NCBI GenBank assembly: GCA_964645405.1 | Contig: CAZYCA010000044.1 | Coordinates: 78,503 to 142,502, forward strand | Origin: an uncultured bacterium | Lineage (GTDB): Bacteria > Ratteibacteria > UBA8468 > B48-G9 > DSTR01 | DNA length: 64,000 nt | Reading direction: 5' to 3' | Program-made: the position numbers and the translations under genes | Shown here: positions 3,371 through 50,150 of the stretch, one piece after another | Position numbering within the stretch: the stretch's first letter is position 1 | Layout of the letters: each line of letters starts with the position of its first letter | The notes under the pieces: model-generated | The model's database searches: none | Told to the model about the DNA's origin: nothing | Seen by the model: only the letters and a program-made list of their open reading frames with translations

Positions 3371-3408
3371 TGAAACTTATACATAGACGGAAAAATGAAG
3401 GATTTGAA

Positions 3409-3825: not shown

Positions 3826-3841
3826 TTTAAGGAGGTGATTA

Positions 3842-4003: not shown

Positions 4004-4039
4004 AGGGATGACATGACCTAAAAAAGATGGGGGAAGACA

Positions 4040-4516: not shown

Positions 4517-4595
4517 AAGGCTGTTTCGGTCTGAAAGTTTTGAGATAAAGCAGAAGTATTACCGCGGTAATCAGTTAAACAAAAAAGGGGGGAAA

Positions 4596-5270: not shown

Positions 5271-5320
5271 AAAATCCTGACAAAAAAGAATTTCAATTTC
5301 ATAGGAAAGGAGGTGAGAAA

Positions 5321-10058: not shown

Positions 10059-10060
10059 GA

Positions 10061-11908: not shown

Positions 11909-11930
11909 TTTTCCCCCGCTTTTTTGGAAA

Positions 11931-14900
11931 TTATTTTGCGCTGAGTTTTTCCTGTAACTGTTCAATGGCACTGGCTACTTTTTCCCGGCAGGCCAGAATA
12001 AGTTCATACGGCATGTTATAGTCATTCAAGGTTGGAAAAACATCATTCCAGATATTCTCCAGAATGTTTTGCGCTTTTTCTGCTTCTTTGTCCCATCCTT
12101 TTTCCTTTGCCTGAAGAATCATACTCCTTAAAAGATTTACATACCAGGCATCTTCCATCCCTTCCCTGATAATCTCCCATCTAATACTATCGACGGGCGA
12201 AGTGTCCACCCATCCTTTCCCTGGTTTTATCCAGGCAGGTTTCTCTGGATGCACAGGATACATTACGGAATTCCAGTGGCTATACCGGGAACGCCAGACT
12301 TCGTCATGGTCCTCCCAGCATTGTATTCCCCACCAGGAAATCAAATCAAGGTCATAACGAGCTGCCTGCCAGAGGTAACTGCGCCATTCTGAGGCTGGAG
12401 CAGAAACCGCAGTTTTTGGTGGAGGACCACAGTTGTACCAGGAAACCAGATCTCCTGCCTGCTTAGCCTTCTGGAAAAATGTACTGTTATGGAGCATGTA
12501 AAGAATCTGCCAGAGTTTAACAACACCCAGTCCTTTTTCTGCTTCCTGGTAATCAATGTTGTTAAAGGCAGTCATAAGAGGCATGCCAGCAGCTCTGGCT
12601 GCAGGAGTCAGTTTCTCCCACCAGTATTGAAAACCAGGTGGTTCATCACTTACTTTCAGAACAAACCGCTCCAGCCATCCTTTTCTGAGAAGGTGTTTTT
12701 TGAAAAGACCAATCATTTCCTCAGCATAGTAGTCAGCAATCCAGTGAACTCCTTCTCTTGATGTTTTTCCCTCAAACCTTTTAGGAAAAATTTTTTTGAA
12801 TTCTGAATGTTGTCTCCCCAGCAGCGCAAGTTCATAAAGCATATAACGAAGATTCCAGGGTTTTCCAGCCGCGTCAATGGTTTCCACCAGCCAGTCAAAG
12901 TAACTGGTATCTAAAGCTACAGTCCCATCATCATTAACTTCCAGCCAGTCAATATCCAGGTTTTTGTATTTCCCTTCCGGGCTGAAATGCCAGCGAAACA
13001 TTTCAGGAGGTCCCAGGTGGATAACTCTCATCCCGTGTTCTACAAGATTAATTACCAGGGATTCAATGTCCTGTTTCTTCAGTTCCCTTCTGGCATCAGG
13101 AGGAAACTGATTCAGGTGTATGTAGGGGTCACCACCCAACCCTTTCTCAGGAATGCTGAAATTGCGAACAGTCAGTTCCAGTGGAATGGTTTGTGAGACA
13201 TCATCTCCGGTGCAGGTTAAGGTGGAGTGGTAAACGCCAGGCTCAGCATTCTCAGATACTATTACTGTGAGCCAGAGCGCCTGGGTTTGCCCGGCATCCA
13301 GGGAGGAAACAGGTCTTTCCAGAAGCACATCAGGGTATCCTGTCCACCCTTTTTCCCAGCGGTCAGGTTCAACTGGATAATAGTAAACCCACCTTAACCA
13401 TAGAGGAGCATGTTTTTTTCTGAATGCTGTCTTATACCTTCTGTCAATTTCTTTACCTGTTTTTTCATGGACTAATGGGCTCAAAGTTACTTTCAGGTTT
13501 TTGATTTTCTGAAAAGCAGTAATGGCCAGTTGTTCTACCTCGTATTCACCTCTGGCTGCCTTCAAAGAAACTTTTTCTTTCTTTTCTTTGTGGGCTCTAC
13601 TGTAAGGATAGATTTTCCTGTCAGCACCGGCTACCCAGAAAATAAATCCTTCTGGTTCTTTTTTCTCTTTCAGGTAGTCGGTGATAAATTTTCTGGCTGC
13701 TTTCACAGTTCCAGAGGCATCACTGCCGGAAATCAGAAGTACCGATTCCTGGGTATCTTCGTAGTGGGGATAAAAAAGAATTGCACCCTTCCCCTTACCT
13801 GGCCAGGTAAGGCTCACGGAGTTTTTCCACCAGCCTATTTCTTTGACTACCTGGTTGGTTTCTGGATTTCCGATAATTAACAATTTGCCCCCGGGATTTG
13901 TCCAGGCTAGCCCAGCTCCTGTTTTTCTGGCAATAGTAATTGCCTGTTTTTTTTCCTCCGGGGAAGCCTCTGCAGAACAGTAAATGGTAAAATCACTTTC
14001 CTGAAGAAACTGGTCAATCTGTTTTTGCTGCTGCCTCTGGTAAACATCGGTTTTCACCGGTGGCAGATTCACCGGCTTTGTTTTGACTTCTATTTGACTG
14101 AGATTAAATTTTCCAGAAGAATCAACCTGGCCTATTGTTTTTCCAGCACTATCCACCGCCACAAGTTTCCAGTCAGAGTTGACCTGTGTTTTAATAATCA
14201 GGGTAGTGTCAGGACAGGCTCTATATTCAGCAATCCTGTTGCCTGTTTTTTCAACGACAAGTAACTTACCAGTAAAGAAAGGAATGATTTTCCCCTGGAG
14301 AAGATTTTGCTCACAAAAGAAAGGGTAAACAACAAGAAATAAAGGATTGATTCCATAAACCTTTTCCTTTACACCGGTGCAGGAGGACAAATAAACCTTT
14401 GTTTCCCAGGTATCTCCAGGCTTGAGCACCAGGGTTTTCAGGACCGGTTCCAGGGTGATTCCCGGACAGTTATAGAAACCAACAAGGGTTTTTTCCTCCA
14501 CCAGAAAACAGAGGGTGTCAGAACTGCTGCGGTTAACCCAGGCAGCCCAGTTTCCTTTCAAAACAGGTGTTGGAAGCTTTCCTGAGACCCAGTGCCGGGC
14601 TGGCTCATCCTTCCAGGAAGCGTTAAAAAATTTATCATTTTTGTATTTTTCTCTGTACTGCGTTAAATTTAGAGATTGATCCAGTTCCAGAATCCCTGCT
14701 TCTGTTTCCAGAAAAATGGTGTCATCCTTTTTTTGATATTTCCCTCTGGCACCAGGGCTGGCAGCGCTGTGAAGTCGCAGGGAAAAAGCAGAAACTTCCC
14801 CGCAAATGTTTTCTAATTTATAGCTCAGTTCAATAGTAGCCAGATCTCTTCTAAGGACCCATTTTTTTGTCAGCCGATAGGCTCCTTCACTTACCTGAAT

Positions 14901-15266
14901 CAAAACCGCGCCAGAACCATCCTGGTTTGTTCCATAAACTACGGGAATAAAAAGCCTTCCTGCCTGAGGTGCTTTACCCTGAAACTCTTTCCAGTTAACC
15001 GGGTCCCATTGCTCGCCCAGAAGATGTCCTCTGACATAATCTGTCTGTCCGTAAAGAACATCCACCATTTCATAGCCTGTGGATTTGAAAAACCAGGATA
15101 GAATACCCTGACTGCTACCCGGACGGCTGCTGATTTTAATATGGAGGAGACTGTTTTTTAGATTGACAGAACCATCAGGGTTAATTTTCACTTCCTGAGC
15201 CAGACCCGTTCTGGTAAGTGTTATTACCAGCAGGCAGAGAGAGATAAGCAGTCTTTTTCTTTCCAT
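11931..15266 (-). CDS. Giant secreted protein (1111 aa) with a C-terminal DUF4091/GH123-like (GH20-like D-E dyad) glycosidase module
   Basis: Signal peptide MERKRLLISLCLLVITLTRTGLAQ. C-terminal module with GVYHSTLTCTGDDVSQTIPLELTVRNFSIPE, then WLERFVLKVSDEPPG, then WYNCGPP...WWG. Paralogous to modules in the two genes described at 15280 and 22135. Confidence 0.6.
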   Translation of the reverse strand: MERKRLLISLCLLVITLTRTGLAQEVKINPDGSVNLKNSLLHIKISSRPGSSQGILSWFFKSTGYEMVDVLYGQTDYVRGHLLGEQWDPVNWKEFQGKAPQAGRLFIPVVYGTNQDGSGAVLIQVSEGAYRLTKKWVLRRDLATIELSYKLENICGEVSAFSLRLHSAASPGARGKYQKKDDTIFLETEAGILELDQSLNLTQYREKYKNDKFFNASWKDEPARHWVSGKLPTPVLKGNWAAWVNRSSSDTLCFLVEEKTLVGFYNCPGITLEPVLKTLVLKPGDTWETKVYLSSCTGVKEKVYGINPLFLVVYPFFCEQNLLQGKIIPFFTGKLLVVEKTGNRIAEYRACPDTTLIIKTQVNSDWKLVAVDSAGKTIGQVDSSGKFNLSQIEVKTKPVNLPPVKTDVYQRQQQKQIDQFLQESDFTIYCSAEASPEEKKQAITIARKTGAGLAWTNPGGKLLIIGNPETNQVVKEIGWWKNSVSLTWPGKGKGAILFYPHYEDTQESVLLISGSDASGTVKAARKFITDYLKEKKEPEGFIFWVAGADRKIYPYSRAHKEKKEKVSLKAARGEYEVEQLAITAFQKIKNLKVTLSPLVHEKTGKEIDRRYKTAFRKKHAPLWLRWVYYYPVEPDRWEKGWTGYPDVLLERPVSSLDAGQTQALWLTVIVSENAEPGVYHSTLTCTGDDVSQTIPLELTVRNFSIPEKGLGGDPYIHLNQFPPDARRELKKQDIESLVINLVEHGMRVIHLGPPEMFRWHFSPEGKYKNLDIDWLEVNDDGTVALDTSYFDWLVETIDAAGKPWNLRYMLYELALLGRQHSEFKKIFPKRFEGKTSREGVHWIADYYAEEMIGLFKKHLLRKGWLERFVLKVSDEPPGFQYWWEKLTPAARAAGMPLMTAFNNIDYQEAEKGLGVVKLWQILYMLHNSTFFQKAKQAGDLVSWYNCGPPPKTAVSAPASEWRSYLWQAARYDLDLISWWGIQCWEDHDEVWRSRYSHWNSVMYPVHPEKPAWIKPGKGWVDTSPVDSIRWEIIREGMEDAWYVNLLRSMILQAKEKGWDKEAEKAQNILENIWNDVFPTLNDYNMPYELILACREKVASAIEQLQEKLSAK

Positions 15267-15279
15267 CTTCCCCCCATTT

Positions 15280-18200
15280 TTAATGAGTAATGCTTTCCAT
15301 GAGAGCTTTTCTCAGAGCAGTTTTTACTGTCTGAAAACGTTCTGGTGTGATATTGTAAAAACTCTGTCTCTCCCCTTCAGGAGCCAGTACTGGTGCAACC
15401 ATTTCTTTCAGTTTTTCCTGTCCCAGTCTCTCTTTAACCAGGAAAAGGAGTTTAATGTCCTCCTGTGCCTGGCGGAAAAGTTCCAGTCTCTGGGAACCAA
15501 TAATTCTCTTTTCAGAAGCATCAGGATAAAAAACTGTGGTCCCACCAGGCCAGCCACCTGGATAATCAGTGTTAGCGTAAACATCAAAGACAAAATGGTC
15601 CCTCAGTTCTACAACCCCTTTCCCGCCTAACTCTCCACCGGACCACATATGACTCCAGTATCCACCACCATAATAAACAGCTCCGTCACACCCTTTCAGG
15701 AAACTGTCCCAGAGAAAAAAACGAATCTGGGTGGGAGTAGTCCGCAAATCAGCATAAGGTGCTCCACCCTTGCAGGTGTAATTCCAGACAACCTCACCCT
15801 CTTTTTTTCTTTCCTGAAGAAACTTCTGACTGAAAATGGTTGGTTCCTCCTCAGACATTGTCCTGCCGTAACGAGTAACCAGGAAAATCCAGTTAGGGCA
15901 CCAGATATTGATGGTACCAATCATTTTCTCTATCTCCTTCCTGCTGGTTCTGTTATGGCAAACTGTTACCGGTAGCCCTGCTCTGCGGAAAAAAGAAGCT
16001 GCTTTCACCCAGGCATCCATATCTGCCGGTTCATCTCCCACCCGCACATAAAGCCGGTCACGATAATCCTTATTTTTTAAAGAAGCAGCCAGAGAATCAG
16101 CCAGAAGATTAAATGCCTCTTCCTCTGTGAGATTAAGTTTTTTCATCATTGTTCTGGCTACAGGCAAAAGATTATTTGGATGCCCTACGATTTCAAAACG
16201 TCCGGAAAAGCCAGCCTTTTGATAAGCAGAAATGACTTTTTCCATCCCGGTTAAATCCCAGCACGGCATTCCTTTCTCCTTGAGGAAACATTCCAGACCA
16301 TACAAACCCCAGCCACTTCCAGCTACTGTAGCCACAGTAACTCCGTGAGAAGAGAAAAGTTTCCCCAGTTGAAAGAGTGCTTTTTCATAACAGGGCTCAT
16401 CAGGTTTTAAATTCAGGTAAAGAGCAAGACTGTTTTCCCGGTAAGAATAAAGTCCGTACATCAGGTTCAAATCCATCACCCAGCCAGAGGGTAAAACTAC
16501 TGGTAAGACATTCATTTCTACAGGTATCTGGAAAGAACTATCTGCACAGTCAATCTGTATCTTTCCCTGATAAAGACCGGGTACTGCAGAATCAGGAATC
16601 AGAAAATTGAACCAGAGGGAAAGGTAACTTTCTGCCGGGACCTGGTCAGGTATTCCTGGCCACAGGGCATCATTATTCGGTTCCGGACAGACATAAACAG
16701 GCCTTTTTTCTTCAGGAATATTTAGAGGATAGGTTGGTGCTCTGTGAGGTAAAGGATGCCCGATGAGGTAAATACTTCTTGCTGCAGGATAAACAGTGCC
16801 GTCAGAATCCAGCAAGGGAAATGTCCAGTAGATATGAGAAATTTCAGACTCTATTCTTGAATTGTTTGCGTTTTTAAGGGTTACCTGCACCCGGATAATT
16901 TTTTGTTTTTCCGGGAAAAAAAGAAGAAGGTGAACTGGTTCTACTTGTCCCTGACAGGCAGTAATATGGACTTTTTCAGGTTTAGACCTTCTCATCCATG
17001 GTCTTACCCTCATTTCTGGAGAGAGAAGACGAACCTGGGGACAGGTTATGGGTTTTAAATGGAAATGCTGGATAAGATATTCCGTCGCCAGTTTTACTCC
17101 GGAAATATCCTGGCCACCAGCATAAATTACAGGAAGCCCGGTTTTTAGAAAATCAGGAATGAGAACAATTCTACCTTTCTCTGGTCCTGGATAATAGCAG
17201 TCCACAAAGCCATATCCCGGGTTATTCGCCCCTACCACAGTATTTTCTTCAGGTGTACCCACCAGAATGAGTAAAAGGTTCTCACACTGGTAGGTTGGAT
17301 ACTGGGTGTTAAGAAAATTACTGAAGTTTTTAGCGGTAAGCAAAGGAGACTGAAATGCTTTTGCCAGTTTCTCAGCACAATAGAGACTACTTTTACTCAT
17401 TTTATCTCCGCTTAGAATAGCAATGTCCATCTCCTGGAGAAGTTTTGATATTTTGTTTCTGTCTGTAGCAGTGATGGCTACCCTGCCGGAAAAAACTTCT
17501 CTCTCTTTAACATAATGCGGAGCCAGAAAATCTGTCTGAAACTTCAGGTAGTCTTTTTCCCCGAAAGAAACGTCCTCAGGTAGTTGTGGATAAAGTGTTA
17601 ATCTCATTCTCAGGGAAACAGGTTTGCCAGCAGTATATTCTGTCCCGAACTGGTGGGGATTGATGTAGTTAGATTTTTCATTGAAGTTCCATATCCACCA
17701 TTGCAGTCCGGAACGATAGGCACCAGCTTCACCTTTTTTAGCACCAAAACTGCTTTTCAGGTCATCGCAGACATAAGAGAAAGCAGAAACCTTTCCTGCA
17801 ACGGCTGACCAGCAGCAACCTGTATTTTGCTGACTTTTGGCAGGAATGCCAAAAACAACAGAGACGGGTTTTCTGGTTTTTACATCTAAGGAATGTACCA
17901 GCCAGGTTTCTGTGGTGGTATCTACCACCAGTTGTCCTGTTCCGCAGATATAAAGACTGCCGTTTTGCTCAGGGACAAAAAGGGTCTCCAGATCTATCAT
18001 CGGTGATTGCCGGTAGATAGAGATTTTACTTTTTGTTGTCCCCGGGATGATTTCCACGTTCTGGTATCTGAGCTGTGACTTTCCAGTAATTAACAAAGTC
18101 GTCCTGAATGGTCCAGAGATTATCCTGATATCTGGTTTGCCCTGAAAAAAACCCAAATGGAACCCCTCTATGGAACTGACTCCTGTCTTCTGCCCGTTCC

Positions 18201-18654
18201 TGTAACGGAACTCTGTCAGTCTTCCTTTGACTAGTCCTTCTTTATCCGGTTCCCCGAGATAAAACAAGCAGGAAAAAATCTCATTGGAGAAAAAATATTT
18301 TTTCCCTTTTTCCATTTCTGCCAGGGTAGGTCCAGGTGAAAACTCATTTTTGACTGGCAGCAGTTTTACCCTTTTTCTCTCCTTGGGGTTCAAATCAACC
18401 AGGCCCACAATTTCTGTTTCCTCTGACGAAAAAACATCAATTTGTACAGGCAGGCTGACTTTTTCCTTAAGAGGGAAATTGCTGGTTTTTTCTGCAGCAG
18501 ACTTCACCTGTAAAACTACTGGTTGACCGCATACTGGAAAATCAAAGGGGTTGTAAAGGATAAATTCTTTCTCCTGGTTATTCCGGGCAATTCCAGGGGA
18601 AAGGAGAAAAAGATAGAGGGAAAAGGTCAGAAAGTACTTCTTTTCTCCTTTCAT
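15280..18654 (-). CDS. Giant secreted protein (1124 aa) with a DUF4091/GH123-like module
   Basis: Signal peptide MKGEKKYFLTFSLYLFLLSPGIARN. Module with GLYQGKIQIDCADSSFQIPVEMNVLPVVLPSG, then LYVRVGDEPADMDAW, then WNYTCKGG...GGGYWSHMW...FYPD. Confidence 0.6.
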   Translation of the reverse strand: MKGEKKYFLTFSLYLFLLSPGIARNNQEKEFILYNPFDFPVCGQPVVLQVKSAAEKTSNFPLKEKVSLPVQIDVFSSEETEIVGLVDLNPKERKRVKLLPVKNEFSPGPTLAEMEKGKKYFFSNEIFSCLFYLGEPDKEGLVKGRLTEFRYRNGQKTGVSSIEGFHLGFFQGKPDIRIISGPFRTTLLITGKSQLRYQNVEIIPGTTKSKISIYRQSPMIDLETLFVPEQNGSLYICGTGQLVVDTTTETWLVHSLDVKTRKPVSVVFGIPAKSQQNTGCCWSAVAGKVSAFSYVCDDLKSSFGAKKGEAGAYRSGLQWWIWNFNEKSNYINPHQFGTEYTAGKPVSLRMRLTLYPQLPEDVSFGEKDYLKFQTDFLAPHYVKEREVFSGRVAITATDRNKISKLLQEMDIAILSGDKMSKSSLYCAEKLAKAFQSPLLTAKNFSNFLNTQYPTYQCENLLLILVGTPEENTVVGANNPGYGFVDCYYPGPEKGRIVLIPDFLKTGLPVIYAGGQDISGVKLATEYLIQHFHLKPITCPQVRLLSPEMRVRPWMRRSKPEKVHITACQGQVEPVHLLLFFPEKQKIIRVQVTLKNANNSRIESEISHIYWTFPLLDSDGTVYPAARSIYLIGHPLPHRAPTYPLNIPEEKRPVYVCPEPNNDALWPGIPDQVPAESYLSLWFNFLIPDSAVPGLYQGKIQIDCADSSFQIPVEMNVLPVVLPSGWVMDLNLMYGLYSYRENSLALYLNLKPDEPCYEKALFQLGKLFSSHGVTVATVAGSGWGLYGLECFLKEKGMPCWDLTGMEKVISAYQKAGFSGRFEIVGHPNNLLPVARTMMKKLNLTEEEAFNLLADSLAASLKNKDYRDRLYVRVGDEPADMDAWVKAASFFRRAGLPVTVCHNRTSRKEIEKMIGTINIWCPNWIFLVTRYGRTMSEEEPTIFSQKFLQERKKEGEVVWNYTCKGGAPYADLRTTPTQIRFFLWDSFLKGCDGAVYYGGGYWSHMWSGGELGGKGVVELRDHFVFDVYANTDYPGGWPGGTTVFYPDASEKRIIGSQRLELFRQAQEDIKLLFLVKERLGQEKLKEMVAPVLAPEGERQSFYNITPERFQTVKTALRKALMESITH

Positions 18655-18670
18655 GGGCAGTTTTCCCTTA

Positions 18671-21600
18671 TCATCTCTGAGTTACCCAGAGATTTTGTAA
18701 TCTGATTGACGGAGAAGAAACTTTTTTCATTTCAGTGCCATAGACCAGACGGTCTCTCATCTCCAGAATTAACCTTTGCAAAACAAGGGGGAAATCCATT
18801 ATTCCGTCTCCACCTTCATACTTCCAGTTTCTATCTCTTGGGCCGTGGTAACCACCAGGGTAGCGACAAGGAAATCCCAGACGGATATTACACCAGCCAT
18901 CAAAGTTGATATAGGTTTGACTTTCCCAGTCTGAGACATTCCACCTGTCTGGTTCATAGCCGATAGAAATCCAGCGCTCTCCTTTGGCATCTTTAAACTC
19001 CCAGATGACCCGGCTCCAGCTACTGTTTCCCTTAATTACGAGCCCACAGGAATCTGCTGCAGTAGGTACAAGAATAGTCTTCTTTGGTTTTAAAATCAGA
19101 TACCGGGGACAGACAGCTGGGATCTCTGGCTGTGGCAGAAGAGTTACTTCTGTTACCGGTCCTTTCTTCTCGTCAAATACAGCGGAAATTGTACCTTTAC
19201 CAGCCCGGGCAGGATTGTCAAAGGCGTTTGTCTCCAGTTCCTCATCCGTTTCTGTCAGAAGCTGCCAGGATTCTGGTGAAGAAAAACTGTCTAAAATATA
19301 TACCTTTGCAGGAAGACTATCATCCAGGAAACTTTCACCTGCAGTAACAGAAACTACCTTTTCCGGACATATCAGATAGCCAGGCATGGCAGATACCTTT
19401 ATTGATACTGGCTGGTTATCAATTTTAACAGGGGTAACATTTCCCATACTGTCTATGAAGGTACTCTGGCACTGCCTTGCTGACTTGATTAACACCTGCC
19501 TTTCCCCTCTTAAAGTCCAGACAGCCAGGATTGTTTCTTTCCCGCGCTGGAACTGGAAAGCATAGAGACTGGTAGAACCTGTGTCCCATGCTTGCTGGTA
19601 TTTAGCCTGGTCCAGAACCCGGGTCAAAGTAGCCATCGCCACATAAGAAATTTTGGGGTATAAGAGAGGGTTTCTCATAAGGAAACCACTGGCACCATAG
19701 ATGGTGTAATAATAAGAATCAGCTACATCTTCCAGTAAACCGATATTAATACTGGGCATACCATAAGCCAGGGCATGGAGAGCATCTCTGACATAATAGG
19801 CAGCCTGGTCTTTCCAGGAAAGTGCACCAGGTTGGGTACAGCGGCAAATCCATTCAAAACCGGAAGAAACAGGTATGTCCTGGTAACCATAAATTTTTTT
19901 CATTTCCTGAAGCCACCAGACTTCCTGAAAGTTTCCTAATTCTGGTTGTCTTTCTGGCATTTTCCAGGCTGAAACTCCTTCTATACCAAAAGCATCAATA
20001 TACTCTTTCGGAAATTTTGCCCGCATAAACTGGATCATCAGAGGAGAGCTACTGTTACCAAAAGTAATTTTTACTCCAGGAAGTTTTTCCCGGTATAACC
20101 TGGCTGCTTCCAATGCCTGCTGCCAGAGTTTCTGGAATCTCTCGTTTTCTTCAGGTGTAAGTTCTGGTGCTGGTAGATTAAGAAGTTCCGGATAAAACAT
20201 CTGAGTCAGCCTGCCGGAAATACCTGTTTCATGGAAAATCATCGCCCATCTGACATGAGGATGTTTTGTAAAAAAAGTATTAACGATTTCCTCTCTCCTG
20301 GTTCCATACCAGGGAGCCATGGAATAGGAAAGTTTGTACTTAGCCAGTTGTTCACCAGAAAAATTTTTCCATCCTGAAGGACAGATGTGACGTATACCCA
20401 TCTTCTGGAGAAGCGGACCAACAGTATCAAGGGAGGCACAACCACCATGAGTACTACCAAACCACCAGACCCCAAAGGGTGATTCCAGACCAGCCTTTCT
20501 GGTATCGGCAGGAAGCAAGGCATAGAAAAAAGGTTCTTCCCAGATTTTTTCTCCTTCTTTATTTTTAATGGTTATTCTTGCCTGAAACCAGCCAGGATTT
20601 TTCTGACTTAAGTCCACTTCTATGATGTTATCGTTTTTTTCCGGGGAAGCTGGCAGAAAAACAGGAATATTTCTGGTTGTCTTCTGGTTATAGAAATCTT
20701 CTGTAGTCAGAATGAGGGAACCGGAGAAAGGAATCTTCTGATTGTTTTTCAAAATGACCTGGAGAGAAGGTTTTTTCTCATCCGCAAAGATAAAATCTCC
20801 ATGTTTTGTCCTGAGCTTTACTTCTACTGGACTTTCTTTCAGGGTCAGAGCCAGAACATGTACACTGCTGGGTAGTCCTAAAGGTTTAAGGGAACAGTTC
20901 TGGTAAGCGAAAAAATGGACAGCGGTACGAATCTCTTTTGTAAGTTCCAGATCCAGAAAATCACCTTCCCGGCCAAACTTGGGGAAATTGTCTCCCAGTA
21001 AATCAGAAATCTGACCTGCTGGTAAATCTACAGAAACAAGCCATAAAGGGATTTGGACTTCCTTTTTTCCCAGTATAATAGTAGCCTGTCCGGCTTTGCG
21101 GATATTTTCTGATGGTGACTGGGAATCCTCAGGGAGATAAACAACAGTGTCAGCAAAGGCATCACCTCGACCACCGCTATCCCCGTAGTGGTTACCAAAA
21201 CGGGTTAACCGCAGTCCCAGGGCCGGTACCTTATTCTTATTCGGCTCTACCAGGCAAAGAAGGTAAGCCTTCTGGTAAAAACGCTTTGGAATTCTGAAGA
21301 TGATACTTTCCGGATTGCCATCAAAGGCACTTCTGGTAGTATAGTTGTCGCAGAAGTCTGCCGGGTCAATACCCTCTTCCAGCCACCGGGAGAGGCCAAC
21401 GTCAATGTGCTTGTTCCAGGCAGCCACCTTCAGGGGAATACTGGAAAAGGTATCTTCCTGGATATTGAGGAACTTTAATTCCAGGCTACCTGGCCGGCCA
21501 TAATACTCAATTTCTAAAGGAAGAAAATCATTTTGTCTGATAGTTTTTTTCTTCTGAAAACCGATAATAAGACATCCCGGGGAAACTTCTAACAAGGTAG

Positions 21601-22138
21601 AATTTTTGTCCGGCGGTCCAGGAATAAAATTTATAAACCTGCCGTCCAGCCATACTTCCATACCTTCAGAATGAACATCCAGTCTTAACTGGAAAGGATG
21701 TTTTGTGGCAGGGGTAAAAAGATGGTATTTGGCTAATACCTGGTTTTGCTCCTCGAATACGTGTCTGTCAACAAACTGGTAAAACCAGCCACCTTTTCTT
21801 TTCTCGCCGACATAAAAGTAAGGGTTTGGTTTAATATAGTAATTCTGCTGGAGAGAAGGTTTCCCTGAAGTTGCCAAATCAAAAATCAGGCAGGATTCTT
21901 TTGTCTCTCTGGGAAGGTGTAAAGAAAATGAGCTACGTACGCCAGCCTGAGACCAGGAAACAACAAGGGTGGCATTTTCCTTTAAAAGAGAACCTTCCAG
22001 GACAACTCCTTCCCCGGTTTCTGGTAAAGAAAAATGGTAGCGGCTTTTCTCAGAAACCTGGAGGGGAAGGTCAGGTATCTGGGCGAAGACACAAACTAAA
22101 GGTAAAAAAAATAGCAGCAGGAAGAATATTCTGTTCAT
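18671..22138 (-). CDS. Giant secreted protein (1155 aa), glycoside-hydrolase-like. Different architecture; no clear DEP motif
   Basis: Signal peptide [21 protein letters not shown]-terminal half resembles a TIM-barrel GH (AMIFHETG...EGVSAW) followed by beta-sandwich domains. Its stop overlaps the upstream start by ATGA. Confidence 0.45.
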   Translation of the reverse strand: MNRIFFLLLFFLPLVCVFAQIPDLPLQVSEKSRYHFSLPETGEGVVLEGSLLKENATLVVSWSQAGVRSSFSLHLPRETKESCLIFDLATSGKPSLQQNYYIKPNPYFYVGEKRKGGWFYQFVDRHVFEEQNQVLAKYHLFTPATKHPFQLRLDVHSEGMEVWLDGRFINFIPGPPDKNSTLLEVSPGCLIIGFQKKKTIRQNDFLPLEIEYYGRPGSLELKFLNIQEDTFSSIPLKVAAWNKHIDVGLSRWLEEGIDPADFCDNYTTRSAFDGNPESIIFRIPKRFYQKAYLLCLVEPNKNKVPALGLRLTRFGNHYGDSGGRGDAFADTVVYLPEDSQSPSENIRKAGQATIILGKKEVQIPLWLVSVDLPAGQISDLLGDNFPKFGREGDFLDLELTKEIRTAVHFFAYQNCSLKPLGLPSSVHVLALTLKESPVEVKLRTKHGDFIFADEKKPSLQVILKNNQKIPFSGSLILTTEDFYNQKTTRNIPVFLPASPEKNDNIIEVDLSQKNPGWFQARITIKNKEGEKIWEEPFFYALLPADTRKAGLESPFGVWWFGSTHGGCASLDTVGPLLQKMGIRHICPSGWKNFSGEQLAKYKLSYSMAPWYGTRREEIVNTFFTKHPHVRWAMIFHETGISGRLTQMFYPELLNLPAPELTPEENERFQKLWQQALEAARLYREKLPGVKITFGNSSSPLMIQFMRAKFPKEYIDAFGIEGVSAWKMPERQPELGNFQEVWWLQEMKKIYGYQDIPVSSGFEWICRCTQPGALSWKDQAAYYVRDALHALAYGMPSINIGLLEDVADSYYYTIYGASGFLMRNPLLYPKISYVAMATLTRVLDQAKYQQAWDTGSTSLYAFQFQRGKETILAVWTLRGERQVLIKSARQCQSTFIDSMGNVTPVKIDNQPVSIKVSAMPGYLICPEKVVSVTAGESFLDDSLPAKVYILDSFSSPESWQLLTETDEELETNAFDNPARAGKGTISAVFDEKKGPVTEVTLLPQPEIPAVCPRYLILKPKKTILVPTAADSCGLVIKGNSSWSRVIWEFKDAKGERWISIGYEPDRWNVSDWESQTYINFDGWCNIRLGFPCRYPGGYHGPRDRNWKYEGGDGIMDFPLVLQRLILEMRDRLVYGTEMKKVSSPSIRLQNLWVTQR

Positions 22139-25100
22139 CTATCCTCCTTGTTTCCCAGGATTAACTGATAAAGTCTGGAACGGGCTTCATTCCAGCTGTC
22201 CATTTTCTGGCTATAGCCATATTTGTAAGGAACAACTGCTTCCAGTATTTGTTGAAGTTGACTGTTTAACTGGCTGGCTTTTTCCTTTTCTCCTTTTTCT
22301 TTTAAATCATGAATTTTTTTCTCCAGCTGCTCCAGCAGTTTCATATCCTGGATTCCTTCGGCTTCCAGCTGCCGGCGTGTAGTATCCAGGATGGTGCCAT
22401 CAGGAAGAAAAGCAATCCGGTGGTCAAGACCATGGTCATAACGGAAGGGGACAGGCTGGATATGGATATTACAATGCAAAGCAGCATAGTTTAAGGCACC
22501 ATCAAATTTCCATTTCTTAGTTAGCCAGTAGAAGGGTAGATTGTCAACAGGTTGACCTGTGATTCTGGTGGGTGGAACCCCACAGCAGTACCACCAGACT
22601 TCTTCTCCTACTTTCTGTCTTTCCTGGAAAAATGGACGGAGAACATTATGCTGGTAGTTAGGACACCATGGTTCCATGATACCAGAAGCTACCTCTATCT
22701 CCGGGTAGTTTCCTGAATGGCAGGTCATGGTGCGTAGTCCGGACAAGCGATAGGGTTTTGCCCACTCTACCCATTCTTTTATATCACGTGGTTCATCACT
22801 TACTTTCAGAATAAATCTTTCCAGCCTTCCTGTTTTTTCAACAAACGCAGCCAGCTGCTCAGCGAACATTTTTTGACATCCACCATTATGCCAGTGGCTG
22901 ACACCAACAAGCTCTCCAGAAATCTTTCCGGTGTCATGTGTTAACTGAGAAAGAAAGAAAGGTGGTGGCAGATTCTCTTTTCTATAAACCTCTTCTATAA
23001 TTTGCATCTGTTCTTTTAGTAGGGAAAAATCAACCGTAAAAGGATACTCCCGGTTTTCTTCTGAAAAAGCAACTATTTTACCTATTTCCAGTTCTTTCCC
23101 TTTCTGGTGGAAAAAACGCATTTTTTTCACTTTCTCTGACAGGCCGGTGAAGAAAAGTCCGTACCAGGAAGGTTCAGTGTTAGTTCCTTTAGGATATGGT
23201 AAAAGGTCTAATCTTTTCCATATTCCCTGATTTCCACAGACCTCCACTACTAAATCTTCCGGAGAAGTAACCCTGACTGCCAGTCCTGCCTGTCTTATTT
23301 TTAATGGTGAAGCAAACTCCACTGTAAGAATACTACCTTCCGGAACTTTTTTACCTCCTGCGGTGTAGACAGCCCAGTTCTCAGATTCAGCAGTTTGTGC
23401 GCTGGTTATTGCTTGCCTGACCGGTTCTATTCCTTCCTCACATTCCCAGGTAAGCAGCATTGGCAGACTGACTACACTTACGCTATGCCGGGCTTCGTTT
23501 TCTGCCAGAGATTTTGTTGCCTTTTTCCATTCTTCTGTCCCTGGAGGGAAAAACCAGGGCACAGCAGCAAAACTCATTGTTTTTACTCTGGAAAACGAAG
23601 GTAACTGTATGGGTAAGACGTTTACTCTTACAGGAACTGATTCCTGATAGTTTTGCCCGGAAACAACAATTTCTCCGTGATAGATACCCGGTCGGGTAAA
23701 CGTGGTTGTTTTTACTGTTAGCCAGATGCCTGTTGATGTCTTTCCGGGTAAAGAAATGGGAAAATCTACCAGAAAATTTGGTAGTCTCAGGTCCCCAAAA
23801 AATGGTTCCCATTCATAAAAACCAACTGCCCGCAGTTTCACCTCACCGGAAAAATCACCCTGGTCAGAGACAAGTTTCCTGCAGGACGCAGATAAAGAAA
23901 CAATATTTTTGTTTGCGGTGATACCAAGCTGAAGGGAACGAGTGTCATTTTGTCCCAGGGTAAGAGATAGGATTTCAGGTTTTCTTCTTTCTGGATGTAA
24001 CTGCCAGGGATAAACAACTTCTAAAACGTCAGAGGAGAAAAGACGGAAGGGTTTATCTGACAGCAGGGGAGATTTAATCTTTCCGAGAAGTCGTCTCCCG
24101 GCAGCAACCACAGCTTCAGGAGTTTCTCCAGTAACAAAAAGCCAGTGAATGCTGGCGTCGCTGTTTTTGTACCAGCCGACCACCCCTTCTTTGTTATTGA
24201 GAAAATTGGCATCAGACCAGATACCTTTTGCTGCCAGCAGCTGACGGCAGTAACGATGTGTCAGTGGCGTGCCAATAGCCAAAACAACCCCAGGATAGAG
24301 GTTAAGACCGATATCATCAGAAACCAGGTAAACACTGGCTTTTTCAGCAATTTCTCTGGCTATTTCCAGTTCTTCTTTTGTGCCCATTTTGGGATAAACA
24401 ATAACAATTTCTCTCCGGCTGATAGCATCAGCCACAGTCTCCAGGTCCTCAGAAAGAAGTGGAGGTTTTAATGGTTTAAAGGCTGGAAGTTCTTCTCCAG
24501 GTTGAGAATGGGGCAGCAACTGGATATTTTTTACTATCGGGCTTAGTTCTCCCCGGACAGAATCAGACTTCAGAATAAACTTTGCCTGGCAGACGGTAAG
24601 AGGAAATGTGGTAGCAGAAGGTATCTTTATTACCTTACCGGGTTCGGTAACAGGACCCAACCAGCAGGTCCAGTTTTTTCCATTTCCGAACCGCACCAGA
24701 GCAAAAAGTTGTGTTTTCCCCTTCACTTTCACTCCATGTATTTCGCAGTCTCCGGCCCCGTAAGTATCCTGTTTTGCCGGGAAGATTTCATTTTCCAGCC
24801 AGAGGTAGTGCCTGCCAGAAGGTAGATTATCTGCCAGAAGATGTTCTGATTTTTCTTTTTCCGGATGCAAGATAAGTCCGGAATGGCCGGTATCCAGAAA
24901 CCATCTAATTTTGCCCGTGCCAGAGACTAAAAGGGAAGCATTATCACCACAAAATTCAATTCCTGCCTGGCCACCAATCTGCCGCAGCAGAACAGATTTT
25001 CTTTTCAGCCAGGGTGTCTGCCAGCGCATGATGGGAAAGCCGCGGAATGACTCCATCTGAGGAGTATAAATAATTTCTTTTTCTTTTTCCTCGCATTCCC

Positions 25101-27108
25101 AATTTAAGGAAATACCCTTTATCCCCGGGGATAGACTTACTTCCTTTACCAGGCAGCCTTCCAGGGCGAAAGCAGTAGAGTACGCTTCCAGTTCTTTCAC
25201 CCCTGTTTTTAAACCCAGGCTGGAAGAAAGTTCCAGTTTTATACAGGCAACCCCGTGGACAGGATTGATTTGTAAGGTAACCTCTTTCCCCGGATAGAGA
25301 CTTTTTGTCCGGAATTGCTCCCAGAAGTTCCAGTCCCTTTCATACCGGCTGATGGTCTTTCCTGAAATGTCAAGAAAACTAATGGTGAAATAAGTATATT
25401 CTTCCAGGATGATGACCAGTTTTTCTATACTTGCTACCCGGGGAAGACTGACCATCAAAACTGCAGGAAGGTTTTCTGGTTGCCAGGATGTTTCCCTTTT
25501 CCCATCTATTGCCAGGCTGCCATTGCCGCTGGAACAGGTAAAGGCAGCATCCTTCAGAAGATTCTTACTGGCAGGAAAATTAGCCAGAGCAATTTCTTCT
25601 CCAGCAAGAATAATAGTTTCAGGCGTTTCTGGTAAAGGTGGTAAAGAACAAGAAGGTGTTTTCAAAAACGATTTTTCCGGTGTTGAATTTCTGGGTAACG
25701 GTCCCTGGACAATCTTTGTTTCCCCGTTTAACACAGAGAGGAACCATTCTGCTGCCGTGGCAGCCTGGCAGGTAGGGCAAAACCTGACTGCCTGCTCGAG
25801 GTTTTTAATGGCAGTTTCTTTATCAATACACCAGCTACCCCTTCCCGCCTTGAAAAAGTAATCACTGGCAGCATCAGCCAGATTGAGTCTCCTGCACATT
25901 TTGGCACAAAACATCATTACTTCCACCATCAATCCGGGCCGGGTGTCTAAAAAAGGTAGCTGTGCCAGTTGCTTGATTTTATGGCCATCGCGGTGAATGT
26001 CGCCAGCATTTTTTTCCAGATATTTTTTTATCAGATAAATGCTTTCTGTTTTTCCTTTCAGAAAGCTACTGATATGAGCGTAATAGTCTTCAGCTATTCT
26101 TCCAGAAGGCATCACTTCCAGGGCAAAACTGAGGAAAGGAATCTGTCGGGCAGAAGATAAACCTTGAATTTCTTTGAGAAAATCCTTCCAGAAAGGTTCT
26201 GTCACTCCGGCAGGTTGTTTTTTGATTTCTTCAAGTATTTTTAAGGCATCCTGATACTGCTTTGCACCAAATAACTGGTGGATGGAGGAAAGAATTTCCT
26301 TCAGTTTCTGAGCAGTGTTCTTCTCTATCTCTTCCATTTCCTTTAATTTCTGACTGGAATTTTCGTCTCCTGACTTGCTTTGCAAAAAAAGCAACCTTTT
26401 TAAAGCATTCCACCTTTCTGGGGTCTGTTCCTGGTAACGGTCAAGAAAACGTTTCAGCTCAGGAATGGCTTTTTCTGCTGGAACCGTGGAAGTGTAACAG
26501 TCGAGAAAGGACCAGAGAAATACTCTACTGTAAGGATAGGTACCACAGACTTCTTCTCCCCTTCTGGCAAGAATATATTTTTCTTCTGGTGAGAGAGGCA
26601 GACTGGCAATTGTATTCTGGGTTAAGGAAAGCATCCAGGAAGCATGCTGACAGTTGTCCAGGAAAACCAGCAAACAATCTTTTCTTATGTCTTCAGGTAA
26701 ATTACGGTCAATAACAATTCTTACTAACTGGTAAAGCAGGCTGGCCTTCAAACTACCATAGTCAGGATAATCCTTACAGAATTTTGCAAACCCCTCTGCA
26801 AAATTCAGGTACCTGCCTGATGCAAATAAGGAAGAGAGAAAAGTATTTGCTGACCAGGCTGGCCATTGAGTTTCCGGGTAAACATTAGCCAGGTACTTCC
26901 AGCGGGAGAAAAGTTGCTCAGGAGTGAGACCTTTTTCCAGAATAATTTCTTCATAAATTCTTTTTGCCTGGTCCTGCCGGGCTAAATTGTGTTCCGGGTC
27001 GCTGAAACAGTTTCCGCAGAGGAAACTGCCAAGAAAAAATGGCAAGTAAGAAAAACACTGCTTCTTCATTATTCTTTGCTTAAAGCTAACCTGGTGAAAA
27101 GCTACCAC
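22135..27108 (-). CDS. Giant secreted multidomain protein (1657 aa): alpha-helical repeat N-domain, discoidin (F5/8 type C) domain, C-terminal DUF4091/GH123-like module
   Basis: Signal peptide [23 protein letters not shown]. About 450 aa of helical, TPR-like sequence. Discoidin-like [31 protein letters not shown]-terminal [30 protein letters not shown], then [14 protein letters not shown], then WYCCGVPP. Confidence 0.6.
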
Positions 27109-27854
27109 ATTCTGAATTTAGTACTCCAGGGACCATCATCTGTGCCAGAATTGGGCACTGGTGGTGTCACGTATTCTGCATGGCCATCAGCAAACAGAAT
27201 GTTTACACCGTAAAAATGGTGTCTTGCCCACCAGTCCACCACCGGCCGACCAACCGTGGTACTGGCAAAACTTCTGGGTAGCCTGACTATGTACTGGCTG
27301 AAATCTCCGAGGACAAAAAATCTGCTGGGTTCCGGTAACCGGCCAAGTCTTCTGGGACCGGTACCACCTGTTCCCCACCAGTTCCTTCCAAACTGAAGGG
27401 TAAAATTATAGCCATAACTGTGGCCCAGCCAGGAAATGGCAGTACTTGGCCAGCTTGTCGGACACTGAAACTGAGGGATAAACCTGTCAATAGAAGTTGG
27501 CAGAGTGGAATCATGGCAGGTTTTTCCTGTCAGATCTAATTTCGGGTCCAGATAATGAGCAATCTGTAACATCCAGTGAGCCCAGTATTCAGTATTATTC
27601 GGGTAGGTGCCACCAATCCTGGCCGGGTCCCAGGTTACTACGGGAAAATAATCATCATTGTCCTGAAGATACAGGAAAATTGCCAGTCCCATCTGTTTGC
27701 AGTTATTAAGGCAGGCAGCACGTCTGGCATTTTCTCTGGCTCTTTCCAGCACAGGTAAAAGAATGGCAGCTAAAATGGCAATGATGGCAATTACCACTAA
27801 CAATTCAATCAGGGTAAATCCATTTTTCACCCATAATTTTTTTCTGTCCATTTT
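27102..27854 (-). CDS. Prepilin-type N-terminal cleavage/methylation domain protein, DUF1559/H-X9-DG family (pseudopilin-like)
   Basis: Preferred start [11 protein letters not shown]|[24 protein letters not shown] (class III signal peptide, Glu at +5). C-terminal [13 protein letters not shown] matches H-X9-DG. The ORF-track start at 27932 would overlap the next gene. Confidence 0.7.
27720..27822 (-). repeat. About 100-nt segment roughly 80% identical to 28447-28548 (5' ends of the two tandem pseudopilin paralogues)
   Basis: Pairwise comparison by eye: ...ggtaaaagaatggcagctaaaatggcaatgatggcaattaccactaacaattcaatcagggtaaa... versus ...ggcaaaagcaaagcggctaaaatggcgatgatcgcaattaccactaataactcaatcaaagtaaaa... 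Confidence 0.5.
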
Positions 27855-27861
27855 TTCCTCC

Positions 27862-28566
27862 TCATTCAACAAAGGTAAACGGGTTATAAAGAACACCAAT
27901 ACCGGTGGTGGGATTATCAATGCTTTGTTCAATGTTAGGACCTGCTACCCACTGGACCCGGCCATCCATAAAAAGCACATTTACTCCCTGCCAGCCATGA
28001 TTCAGGTAGGCACCGGTGATTCTTGGCTGGTAAGCACTGGCAGTCGTATCCTGCTTTGCTTTCCAGATAGAACTACGTTTGTCAAACGTGTAGTACCACT
28101 TATCGCTTTCATCTATTAAGAGGGCAAACTTCTGGAAGTAGGGGTCACTGCTGACCTGAAGCTGGATGGCATAGGCGTAAGAACAGTGGTTTCTTTTATC
28201 CTTTCCGGTGGGACATCCTCCCGGACAGTTCTGGGAAATACGGGTATTGCGGCCGATATGGTCGTAGGTGCGGGCTGAAGGGCAGACAAAAACTCCGGCA
28301 GATTTCAGATACCCTTCTGTCTGTAGCATCGCCAGAGAACGCAGCATATTCAGGCTGTTGGGCCAGGAAGGAAAAAATCCTCCAAAATCCTGGGCATACA
28401 TAGTTAAAGATGTGCCCAGTTGTTTCAGGTTACTCGTACAGACGCCACGTCGCGCGTTTTCTCTTGCCCGGCCCAGGACAGGCAAAAGCAAAGCGGCTAA
28501 AATGGCGATGATCGCAATTACCACTAATAACTCAATCAAAGTAAAACCTTTACTGTCTGTCTTCAC
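27862..28566 (-). CDS. Prepilin-type N-terminal cleavage/methylation domain protein, DUF1559-like (second tandem paralogue)
   Basis: N-terminus MKTDSKG|[34 protein letters not shown]-terminal [19 protein letters not shown]. Its start overlaps the regulator stop (28563-28566). Confidence 0.7.
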
Positions 28567-29645
28567 CTTATCCTCCTTGTTGATTCTCTGATAAGAATTT
28601 TACCCGGGATAATTGTTCTTAGTTCTACTTTCTCGCCCCGGATAAGACGGATTAGTTTTTCTGCGGCTTTCCTTCCTAAAAGAGAAGGGAAAATATCTGC
28701 GGTGGTCAGACTGGGGATGGTGTGCTGGGTAAAGGAAGAATTGTGACAGCCGCAGAGAGAAATATCTTCCGGGACAGATAATCCTTTTTCTCTGATGGCT
28801 CTCAAGGCACCAACGGAGATAAAATCATCGGCACAGACCAGTGCGGTAGGGGAATATTTCAAAATTTTTCTGGCATTTTCATAGCCGCTGATTTCAGAGA
28901 AAGCACCATGTTTTACCAGGGTTTTTTCATAACCAATCCCGTATTTCTGAAGAGCCATTCTATACCCGTTAAGTTTGTCCTGGCAGACAGTCAGTCTCTT
29001 TGGACCGTTTATAAAGCCTATCTTTTTGTGTCCTGACTTGAGAAGATGTTCTGTAAGCAGGTAAAAGATTTTCTGGTGGTCGACATCTACGGTAGAAACA
29101 TTTTGTTCTTGTGTTCTGCCCAAAACAACGAAAGGGGTACCCATCTTTTGCAGTTTTTTTACCCTGTTATCAGAAAAGGTGGGCTCGGTCAGGATAACAC
29201 CCTGCAGGGAATTTTTCTTTCCGGGCTCAAGGTAACCGTTCTCCGTATCAGTGAAGACCAGTACGTCCTGTCCGTACGTACATGTAACACTCTTGATTCC
29301 CAGAAGGAAATCAGAAACAAAAGGTGAACAGAGTCCCCCGTTGGTGGAGGGGATAACTATGCCAATAGGTGCACCTCCTTTCTCAGCCGAGCAAAGTTTT
29401 TCTGCCACATAGGTACCTTTGCCGGGAACCCGGAAGAGAAGGCCATCTCTGGTTAGTTCCACCAGCGCCTGACGGATACTGATGTGGCTGACACCAAAGA
29501 GATGACACATCTGTCTTTCTGAAGGTAGTAACTGACGGGGTTTGAGTATTCCTTCCACAATTGCCCTGCGGATGGCTTCCTTGACCTGAATATAGAGTGG
29601 CACAGGATTATTTCTTTCTACCTTCTGGAATATCTTTTCAGGCAT
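28563..29645 (-). CDS. Transcriptional regulator with a GntR-type winged-helix N-domain and a LacI/PBP1 periplasmic-binding-fold sugar-sensor domain
   Basis: N-terminus [48 protein letters not shown] (GntR HTH). The C-terminal ~270 aa resemble a LacI-family ligand-binding domain. First gene of the long minus-strand operon. Confidence 0.65.
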
Positions 29646-29781
29646 AATGGCCCACTGTTTATATACAGATATATTTTACACCTGACACCTCTGGCAGTCA
29701 AGTCAGGCAGAAAATAAAAAGAGAAAGGAGTATTCTGTTTTGTGATAGGGTATAATAAAAAGGTTACAAGCAAGGAGGGTT

Positions 29782-30540: not shown

Positions 30541-30575
30541 TTTCTCGTGGTAAAGAAGTTTTTTGGAGGAGGGGA

Positions 30576-39352: not shown

Positions 39353-40270
39353 TTATTTCCCTCTGATTAAGCAGGCTACTTCATGTCCCGGTTCTATCTC
39401 TTTCAGAGCAGGAATATAGTCCAGACAGCAATTTTCAAACTCAGGACAGAAACAGGCATAAGGACAACCCTGGCTAGGTATGGTTCTCAAGGCTAACCGG
39501 GTAACTCTGTACTGAGAAGAAGCCACCAGAGACATAGTATAAGGATGAGCGGGTGATCTGATAATCTGGCTGGACTTTCCTATTTCCACAATTCTTCCCC
39601 GGAACATGACCGCAATTCTATCAGCAAGAAATTCCACCACCTTTAGATTATGGGAAATGAAAAGGTAAGTTAAAAAGTATTGCTCCTTCAGTTGCAGAAA
39701 AAGATTGAGAATCTGTGCCTGAACAGAAAGGTCCAGATTGGATGTTGGTTCGTCGCATACCAGAAATTCTGGTTCTGGACCAAGCGCTCGGGCAATCGCT
39801 AACCGCTGTCTCTGTCCTCCGCTGAACTGGTGGGGCAAGCGGTCAAAATCATCAGTACTCAGCCCCACATCCAGAAGCAGTTTCCTTGCCCTTTCTTTTT
39901 TTTCTGAAAAACTACCGGCAGCTGCCTCCATAATAATTTGACCGGCTTTCATCCTGGGATTGAGAGAACGGTAGGGGTCCTGGAAAACTATCTGAAAGTT
40001 TTTCCGCAGCCCACGCAACCTGCTTTCTGGAAGATGTGTTATCTCTAAAGTGCGAAAGAAAATCCTGCCAGAACTGACGGGAAGAAGCCTTAAAAGTACT
40101 TTCCCGAGCGTGCTTTTTCCACTCCCACTTTCACCGACCAGTCCAAGGGTTTCTCCCTGGTAGAGACGCAGGTCAATGTCCTTCAGAGCCTCCAGTCTTA
40201 TTGCCCCGCCCAGGGGGTCTGTCAGCTGGTATGTTTTATTAACTTTTTTCAGTTCCCAGAGTTTTTCCAT
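39353..40270 (-). CDS. ABC transporter ATP-binding protein, OppF/DppF type
   Basis: Walker A GESGSGKST, ABC signature LSGGQRQR, Walker B FLVCDEPTS, and a C-terminal Cys/His-rich Opp-type extension. Confidence 0.8.
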   Translation of the reverse strand: MEKLWELKKVNKTYQLTDPLGGAIRLEALKDIDLRLYQGETLGLVGESGSGKSTLGKVLLRLLPVSSGRIFFRTLEITHLPESRLRGLRKNFQIVFQDPYRSLNPRMKAGQIIMEAAAGSFSEKKERARKLLLDVGLSTDDFDRLPHQFSGGQRQRLAIARALGPEPEFLVCDEPTSNLDLSVQAQILNLFLQLKEQYFLTYLFISHNLKVVEFLADRIAVMFRGRIVEIGKSSQIIRSPAHPYTMSLVASSQYRVTRLALRTIPSQGCPYACFCPEFENCCLDYIPALKEIEPGHEVACLIRGK

Positions 40271-41204: not shown

Positions 41205-41213
41205 TTAACATCC

Positions 41214-50143: not shown

Positions 50144-50150
50144 CTTTGCC

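Follow-up and report, generated by a model that had tools for sequence, protein, structure and literature searches.

In environmental bacteria, few protein families of unknown function are as large as the DUF1559/H-X9-DG proteins, the largest paralogue family of the Planctomycetota. Planctopirus has 68 paralogues, its largest paralogue group, of which two are essential (PMC10632474), and Rhodopirellula baltica has 74 family members (PMC2754498). In Tuwongella, 91 proteins combine N_methyl and SBP_bac_10 domains; the corresponding genes are distributed evenly and often lie beside genes for proteins with signal peptides, and the two-domain proteins that were identified came mostly from detergent (membrane) fractions (PMC8567305). 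Verruconatronum alginivorum has 67 pulG-like homologues, one of which (pgaptmp_000050) is part of an alginate-degradation cluster; the genes for the type II secretion system are found elsewhere. On alginate, the cluster genes were over-expressed and so, separately, was a pseudopilin outside the two clusters, and the authors suggested that the type II secretion system exports the cluster enzymes (PMC13274419). Secretion and pilus genes also occur in Omnitrophota (bioRxiv 10.64898/2026.06.07.730766). Here, we analyzed a 64-kb stretch of DNA from an uncultured bacterium (contig CAZYCA010000044.1 of assembly GCA_964645405.1; hereafter, the window), in which positions 27102..28566 are occupied by two minus-strand open reading frames (ORFs), genes A and B. 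It is almost certain that they are a pair of DUF1559 prepilin-type genes set in an operon with a sugar regulator and exported glycosidase-like proteins. Lengths below are in amino acids (aa) or nucleotides (nt).

Gene A: 27862..28566, minus strand, 234-aa prepilin-type protein of the DUF1559 family.
Gene B: 27102..27851, minus strand, 249-aa prepilin-type protein of the DUF1559 family.

Gene A starts at a GTG that is preceded at 5 nt by AGGAGG and overlaps the stop codon of the upstream regulator gene (GTGA). The likeliest start of gene B is the ATG at 27851, 10 nt past the gene A stop, because it has a ribosome-binding site (GAGGAGG, overlapping the gene A stop codon), gives a leader of normal length, and matches independent gene calls, including one from JGI. 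The TTG at 27932, chosen as the start of the automatic ORF, was rejected; it would overlap gene A and leave an abnormally long leader. We also set aside the plus-strand ORFs antisense to the pair (e.g., 27697..28119 and 28268..28591), which are mirror images of the conserved helix codons and are without support as genes.

Class III signal-peptide features can be read directly in both proteins. The leader of A is VKTDSKG/FTLIE (the slash marks the cleavage site), and B has the cleavage motif G/FTLIE. Both leaders are short and basic, with Gly at -1, Phe at +1, Glu at +5, and about 20 hydrophobic residues, as is characteristic of the type IV pilin superfamily. Past the leader, the sequence reads GRARENARR in A and ERARENARR in B, and the C-terminal box is H-X10-DG in A (27999..27958) and H-X9-DG in B (27221..27180). 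A preliminary description of this DNA had attributed Glu+5 leaders, the box, and ERARENARR to both proteins; the first two are present in both, and ERARENARR as such is confined to B. The cysteines conserved in the family are Cys43 and Cys95 (C-P-S) in A and Cys47 and Cys130 (C-P-T) in B. Apart from these two genes, we found no GFTLIE-type leader in the six frames of the 64-kb window. The 74 kb of this genome that were read thus contain two copies of the family.

Profile searches assigned both proteins to the family, as the preliminary description had proposed. Pfam N_methyl (PF07963) was matched at 37.4 bits by A and 32.8 bits by B (cut-off 21.2), and DUF1559/SBP_bac_10 (PF07596) at 41.3 and 48.1 bits, respectively (gathering cut-off 23.3), with the PF07596 matches covering profile positions 2-35 (A) and 2-103 (B) only, of 268. 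Similarly, the NCBIfam prepilin domain TIGR02532 scored 33.5 in A and 36.0 in B, both above the cut-off of 16.3, and the H-X9-DG model TIGR04294 scored 19.2 in B and 18.0 in A, whose box is H-X10-DG (cut-off 19). In an alignment of 77 family sequences, the invariant positions were F+1, T, L, I, and E+5, most of the helix, the A-R of ARENARR, the Cys after this motif, a second Cys in the C-P-S context, and the Asp of H-X9-DG; the His and Gly of the box were conserved in at least 90%. Every conserved column is carried by A and B. One search found more than 8000 word-sharing family candidates, and an exhaustive single-sequence search retrieved 88,965 cluster representatives (50% identity) at E <= 1e-10; only 3 of these reached E <= 1e-30, and the B subtype is therefore rare.

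The pair shares with the large planctomycetal family the domain order N_methyl, DUF1559, and H-X9-DG, a near-invariant N-terminal segment through ARE.ARR..C, the C-P-S cysteine, and the H..G.N..FADGH box, as well as a dispersed position away from pilus machinery and beside exported proteins. By contrast with typical DUF1559 proteins, A and B are short (234 and 249 aa), belong to an Omnitrophota-like host, and form a conserved tandem pair of diverged copies under a sugar regulator; A also scores slightly too low for the TIGR04294 cut-off.

In sequence, the likeness to better-studied pseudopilins and pilins goes no further than the N-terminal helix. Among full-family NCBIfam models, A matched GspG best (E 8.5e-11, profile positions 1-70), but the GspG equivalog (TIGR01710) was scored at only 42.0 bits by A and 31.2 bits by B, against a cut-off of 88.85, through the N-terminal 59-70 profile positions. 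All NCBIfam pilin and pseudopilin equivalogs fell far below cut-off for both proteins and matched the N-terminal helix only. Compared with GspG, PulG, and EpsG, the heads of A and B are about 100 residues larger, their genes are not in a gsp operon with gspD/E/F and minor pseudopilins, and the H-X9-DG box and conserved cysteines are specific to the DUF1559 family. Likewise, type IVa pilins (e.g., Thermus thermophilus PilA4, PDB 6xxd) resemble A and B in sequence in the N-terminal helix only; no pilB/C/M-Q genes lie near A and B. AlphaFold models of A and B had type IV pilins and the pseudopilin EpsG as their best, albeit weak, structural matches, and each model shows the pilin arrangement, in which an N-terminal helix some 50 residues long packs on an antiparallel beta-sheet head, so a pilin-like fold is predicted for both. 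As judged from their sequences, A and B are short, divergent DUF1559/H-X9-DG prepilin-like proteins that fail the equivalog test for GspG but may function as pseudopilins do.

The pair lies within a run of minus-strand genes:

29673..29701, minus strand, promoter-like site TTGACT-17-TAAAAT, with 10 of 12 matches to a sigma-70-like consensus, the top score in 9950-29900.
28563..29645, minus strand, regulator and first operon gene, matching GntR (67.5 bits) and Peripla_BP_3 (110.4 bits).
22135..27069, minus strand, large exported protein of about 1644 aa from the ATG at 27069, with a Sec-type signal peptide and a weak GH123_cat match of 23.6 bits (cut-off 23.1).
18671..22138, minus strand, 1155-aa exported protein with a Sec-type signal peptide and without a Pfam match.
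15280..18654, minus strand, 1124-aa exported GH123-like protein with a Sec-type signal peptide (GH123_cat, 28.3 bits).
11931..15266, minus strand, 1111-aa exported GH123-like protein with a Sec-type signal peptide (GH123_cat, 44.8 bits).
10061..11971, minus strand, 636-aa DUF4838 protein (66.6 bits), the last gene of the same-strand cluster.

Spacers within the cluster are minimal, that between A and B being 10 nt. The earlier view that the pair is embedded in an operon of carbohydrate-active enzymes holds: on the minus strand, A and B share a single, tightly packed operon with genes for GH123-like glycosidases and a DUF4838 protein. The automatic ORF of the ~1644-aa protein is 1657 aa long from the GTG at 27108. 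The 1111-aa protein is related to solved beta-N-acetylgalactosaminidases (8k2j, E 1.6e-15). For the 1155-aa protein, no Pfam match appeared even at E <= 1, and its sole sequence match in the PDB was a weak one to an uncharacterised protein (5jvk, E 6e-6). Three of the four large proteins encoded at 11931-27069 (minus strand) are distant paralogues in their GH123-like C-terminal parts (22-32% identity); the 1155-aa protein matches none of these three.

The product of the first operon gene has a GntR-type winged helix at its N-terminus, followed by a LacI-type sugar-binding domain. In the AraR-type regulators of Bacillus subtilis, a GntR DNA-binding domain is fused to a LacI/GalR-type sugar-binding domain. 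By this shared architecture, the first gene encodes an AraR-like chimera, which would imply that repression of the operon is relieved by a sugar. The promoter-like site ahead of it was called from the match to a sigma-70-like consensus only. It is flanked by inverted repeats at 29706..29682 and 29668..29655; in the former, CTGAC...GTCAG spans the -35 hexamer, and in the latter, CTGT-ATATAA-ACAG lies just past the -10 hexamer. These repeats may be operators for the regulator, although with arms of only 4-5 bp they are perhaps due to chance.

Part of this arrangement recurs in relatives. L004 is a contig (JAMWDJ010000057.1) of a Candidatus Omnitrophica metagenome-assembled genome (MAG; NCBI GCA_023818805.1) in which a LacI-type regulator gene (L004:4896-5903) is followed by three tandem pseudopilin genes and then by a gene for a protein homologous to the 1155-aa one (31% identity over 990 aa, E 7e-128). 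In a second contig, L005, a LacI-type regulator gene (L005:148-1158) precedes two pseudopilin genes. By sequence comparison, the order of regulator, two to three pseudopilins, and large exported protein is conserved in relatives at 60-68% identity, which speaks for a functional link of the exported proteins with these pseudopilins. In place of the GntR winged helix of the window regulator, a LacI-type helix-turn-helix is found in the regulators of L004 and L005, and the alignment is limited to the sugar-binding part (28-34% identity). Operons that are otherwise equivalent therefore differ in the DNA-binding domain of their regulator, and the likeness to AraR does not extend to the orthologous ones. 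Among named sequences, the closest homologue of B comes from a Candidatus Omnitrophica MAG (67%).

No new kind of element is present in the window, and the genomic context has already been described for Verrucomicrobiota and Planctomycetota. As in Verruconatronum, a pseudopilin-like gene of a many-copy family stands in a polysaccharide-degradation cluster, but the phylum, the substrate, and the enzyme families differ, and the likeness of the two loci is one of gene context. The window provides a clean, conserved example from outside the Planctomycetota-Verrucomicrobiota-Chlamydiota (PVC) group, in which the translation of two diverged members is coupled to that of a sugar-sensing repressor and of Sec-exported GH123-like enzymes. 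The conserved partners of A and B include the 1155-aa protein of unknown function. With this arrangement, the vague notion that these pseudopilins have a part in polysaccharide use becomes a definite pairing of pseudopilins with candidate cargo, which can be tested.

We then considered the age of the pair, which the preliminary description had read as a recent duplication or a case of gene conversion. A and B are 32% identical overall and 25% identical outside the N-terminal 36 codons, and each has separate orthologues in L004 and L005 (A, 62%; B, 67-68%); the split between A and B therefore predates those lineages. Both observations exclude a recent duplication, and we regard A and B, on these alignments, as old, anciently diverged paralogues.

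The claim of recency had been drawn from a nucleotide repeat at the 5' ends of the two genes, which we delimited as follows:

Repeat copy 1: 28441..28548, minus strand, gene A codons for G(-1) to residue +35.
Repeat copy 2: 27714..27821, minus strand, the same codons in gene B, identical to copy 1 at 84 of 108 positions.

The repeat itself is real. Over the interval from which an identity of roughly 80% had been reported, we counted 81 of 102 positions (79%), and a repeat search returned 137 nt at 74% identity (27688-27824 versus 28415-28551). A 32-nt pattern common to both copies occurs exactly twice in the window and never in shuffles. To set these values against the encoded peptides, codons were redrawn for both from the codon usage of the window itself. 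Over the 36 codons from Gly(-1), the observed identity of 78% (84/108) compares with 69.5 +/- 3.1% in the simulation (P ~0.006), only slightly above what the peptide predicts, and of the 32 residues that A and B have in common, 16 use the same codon, where 9.85 would be expected (z 2.4, P ~0.015). As controls, pairs of unlinked DUF1559 paralogues, both members of a pair coming from the same genome, were taken from three other MAGs and shared 72-82 of 108 positions (67-76%), with z ~0 and codon identity at expectation. A 5'-end identity of about 70-75% is thus the baseline for any two family members and is expected from the peptide alone, so that such repeats are not to be read as recent duplication; A and B exceed this baseline by about 8 points. 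We conclude that their 5' repeat mainly reflects a near-invariant N-terminal peptide and owes little, if anything, to exchange between the two neighbours.

The stronger claim, that gene conversion between adjacent copies maintains the repeat through concerted evolution of the segment for the signal peptide and helix, appears less likely than not. The excess of nucleotide and codon identity just described is what it predicts, and at the 5' end A and B resemble each other (84/108) more than either resembles its own orthologue (72-73/108), but the latter comparison is confounded by codon usage, since the window has a GC content of 46% and L004 and L005 of 36-37%. A linked DUF1559 pair, 5 kb apart in another genome, gave z = 2.8, compared with z ~0 for the unlinked pairs; the control paralogues, however, were drawn from other genomes only. 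Furthermore, unbroken identity between A and B extends over 14 nt at most, synonymous codons differ in half of the cases, and the pair was picked for its likeness, which weakens the uncorrected P values. The process does occur in the family, as two of the three pseudopilin genes of L004 illustrate:

L004 genes 1 and 3: L004:6136-6867 and L004:7668-8348, sharing a perfect 52-nt run in the helix codons.

Elsewhere these two genes are only 34% identical, and 26 of 33 codons are the same, against 12.5 expected (P < 5e-5); judged by these sequences, a 5' gene-conversion or segment-replacement event between them is clear. The gene conversion proposed in the preliminary description is therefore at most weakly supported for A and B, and clear in their relative. 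A metagenome scan with the codon pattern shared by A and B, GARTTRTTAGTGGTAATTGCNATYATYGCNATTTTAGC, gave five matches, in a collection that lacks the source contig; four are on high-GC contigs and have no leader fitting the prepilin motif pattern, and the fifth is an unrelated 146-aa pilin.

We next asked what machinery could serve A and B. Pfam scans covered nearly all window ORFs of at least 150 aa, except those nested in or antisense to a larger annotated gene. Among these ORFs, we detected no prepilin peptidase and no GspD/E/F or PilB/C/Q family member (secretin, assembly ATPase, or platform), and the next 10 kb of the contig beyond the window start contain housekeeping genes only, with no pilus or type II secretion gene. 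The reported lack of a prepilin peptidase and of GspE/F/D in the 64 kb was thereby confirmed and extended. Calling the pair orphan pseudopilins is apt as a description, but the orphan state is no peculiarity of this locus, as it is the norm for the family elsewhere. A genome-collection scan with protein B yielded 43 loci from other phyla, none above ~35% full-length identity and hence none from a close relative; these loci provided the family context and the codon controls. The motif scan located the gene in 40 of them. In 35 of the 40, it was the single family gene within ~20 kb, and the 25 commonest Pfam families of 96 neighbouring proteins in the 43-locus set included no pilus or secretion component. 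Lack of nearby pilus machinery is normal for the DUF1559 family, and published genomes of planctomycetes and verrucomicrobia display a like dispersal.

The best overall explanation, in our judgment somewhat better than an even bet, is that A and B are pseudopilins specific to their operon and rely on a type II secretion or type IV pilus machine encoded far from it. In such a scheme, the cognate sugar would relieve repression, and A and B would be made together with the enzymes. Both would insert into the inner membrane via the N-terminal helix, and a prepilin peptidase encoded elsewhere would cleave after Gly(-1). The mature proteins would then enter a shared assembly platform of the type II secretion or type IV pilus type, also encoded elsewhere; this step is probable because Phe+1 and Glu+5 are invariant and the fold is predicted to be pilin-like. 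In pilins that have been studied, Glu+5 matters for assembly rather than for cleavage. As operon-specific pilin or pseudopilin subunits, A and B would most probably help the co-encoded large glycosidases to cross or dock at the outer envelope. Export or surface docking is favoured because large glycosidases must cross the outer membrane to reach a polymeric substrate, and the candidates for cargo are the four large downstream proteins, all with Sec-type signal peptides and three of them GH123-like. This secretion-adaptor mechanism in particular is put forward tentatively, with a probability that falls clearly short of even.

Several observations weigh against the proposal. None of the required components (prepilin peptidase, assembly ATPase, platform, and secretin) was detected in the 74 kb of this genome that were read. 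In the published literature, we found no demonstrated function for DUF1559/H-X9-DG proteins, and no experiment links any of them to secretion. A single pseudopilus is difficult to square with dozens of paralogues in each genome. Finally, the neighbours of family genes elsewhere are heterogeneous rather than uniformly secreted enzymes, and include phosphofructokinase, GFO/IDH/MocA oxidoreductases, BNR, pectate lyase, and PSD1/PSCyt2.

Two other functions fit part of the same evidence, and sequence alone does not separate them from secretion by adaptor pseudopilins. In the first, A and B would be major or tip subunits of a fibre that binds the polysaccharide of the operon and holds it to the cell or retracts it, with no role in enzyme secretion. 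The pilin-like fold and the invariant Glu+5 suit a fibre equally well, and aromatic side chains abound in the head of B (11 Trp, 10 Tyr, and 14 Phe among 238 mature residues), a frequent trait of surfaces that bind glycans. There is also a parallel in planctomycetes, which, as cited in PMC11131199, bind dextran at crateriform structures and, in Fimbriiglobus, have type IV pili that enhance adhesion to chitin. However, Pfam and NCBIfam profile scans revealed no carbohydrate-binding module in A or B, no ATPase for retraction or extension is encoded nearby, the aromatic content is suggestive only, and direct evidence for a DUF1559 protein in a fibre is lacking. We consider a glycan-capturing or adhesive fibre improbable.

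In the second, the class III signal peptide would merely anchor A and B in the inner membrane, with periplasmic heads that bind substrate or scaffold enzymes, and no filament would be formed. The Pfam name SBP_bac_10 and the treatment of the family as solute-binding (PMC2754498) point this way, as does the recovery of the two-domain Tuwongella proteins from detergent-soluble membrane fractions, and dozens of paralogues per genome suit independent membrane proteins better than one filament. On the other hand, the models of A and B look unlike periplasmic binding proteins and have pilins and a pseudopilin as their best structural matches, and mere anchoring would not need the strict invariance of Glu+5 across the family. 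An Opp/Dpp-type ABC importer encoded in the window (39353..43218, minus strand) would also fit a binding role, but lies in a different, distant transcription unit; its binding-protein gene was not identified. Membrane-bound heads of this kind are about as doubtful as a fibre.

Returning to operon-specific pseudopilins, a broader version can be drawn from the recurring set of a sugar regulator, A-type and B-type pseudopilins, and exported large glycosidase-like proteins. This set might act as a plug-in targeting device, by which each substrate-specific operon, with a pseudopilin pair of its own, temporarily re-equips one shared machine; we offer this as a speculation that is unlikely to be right. 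The re-equipped type II secretion or type IV pilus machine might export or present the enzymes of the operon, or capture its glycan, an extension that we likewise hold to be a long shot. If true, such a device would account for the growth of the family to dozens of copies, scattered over each genome, in Planctomycetota, Verrucomicrobiota, Omnitrophota, and other phyla.

As for the host, the nearest named relatives of the RpoD encoded in the window are from Candidatus Omnitrophica (82%) and Ratteibacteria (64-66%). Clustered genes for a response to oxidative stress of the kind typical of anaerobes (a Fur-family regulator, rubredoxin, two rubrerythrins, peroxiredoxin, and desulfoferrodoxin) were found at 3313-5845 (plus strand) and L056:13717-16087, and the rubrerythrin, desulfoferrodoxin, and peroxiredoxin genes suggest an anaerobe. 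By these sequence affinities, the host is an uncultured Omnitrophota-like anaerobe, not a member of the Planctomycetota.

Further genes for glycan use occur in the window. Divergent from the operon, after a NIF3-family gene, 30537-39347 (plus strand) encodes a 2936-aa protein with two GH94 supersandwich stretches, a GH94 catalytic domain, and a glucoamylase-like domain, which resembles a cyclic beta-1,2-glucan synthase or phosphorylase. A GH38 alpha-mannosidase and a sulfatase are encoded at 7224-10058 (plus strand) and 48698-50194 (minus strand).

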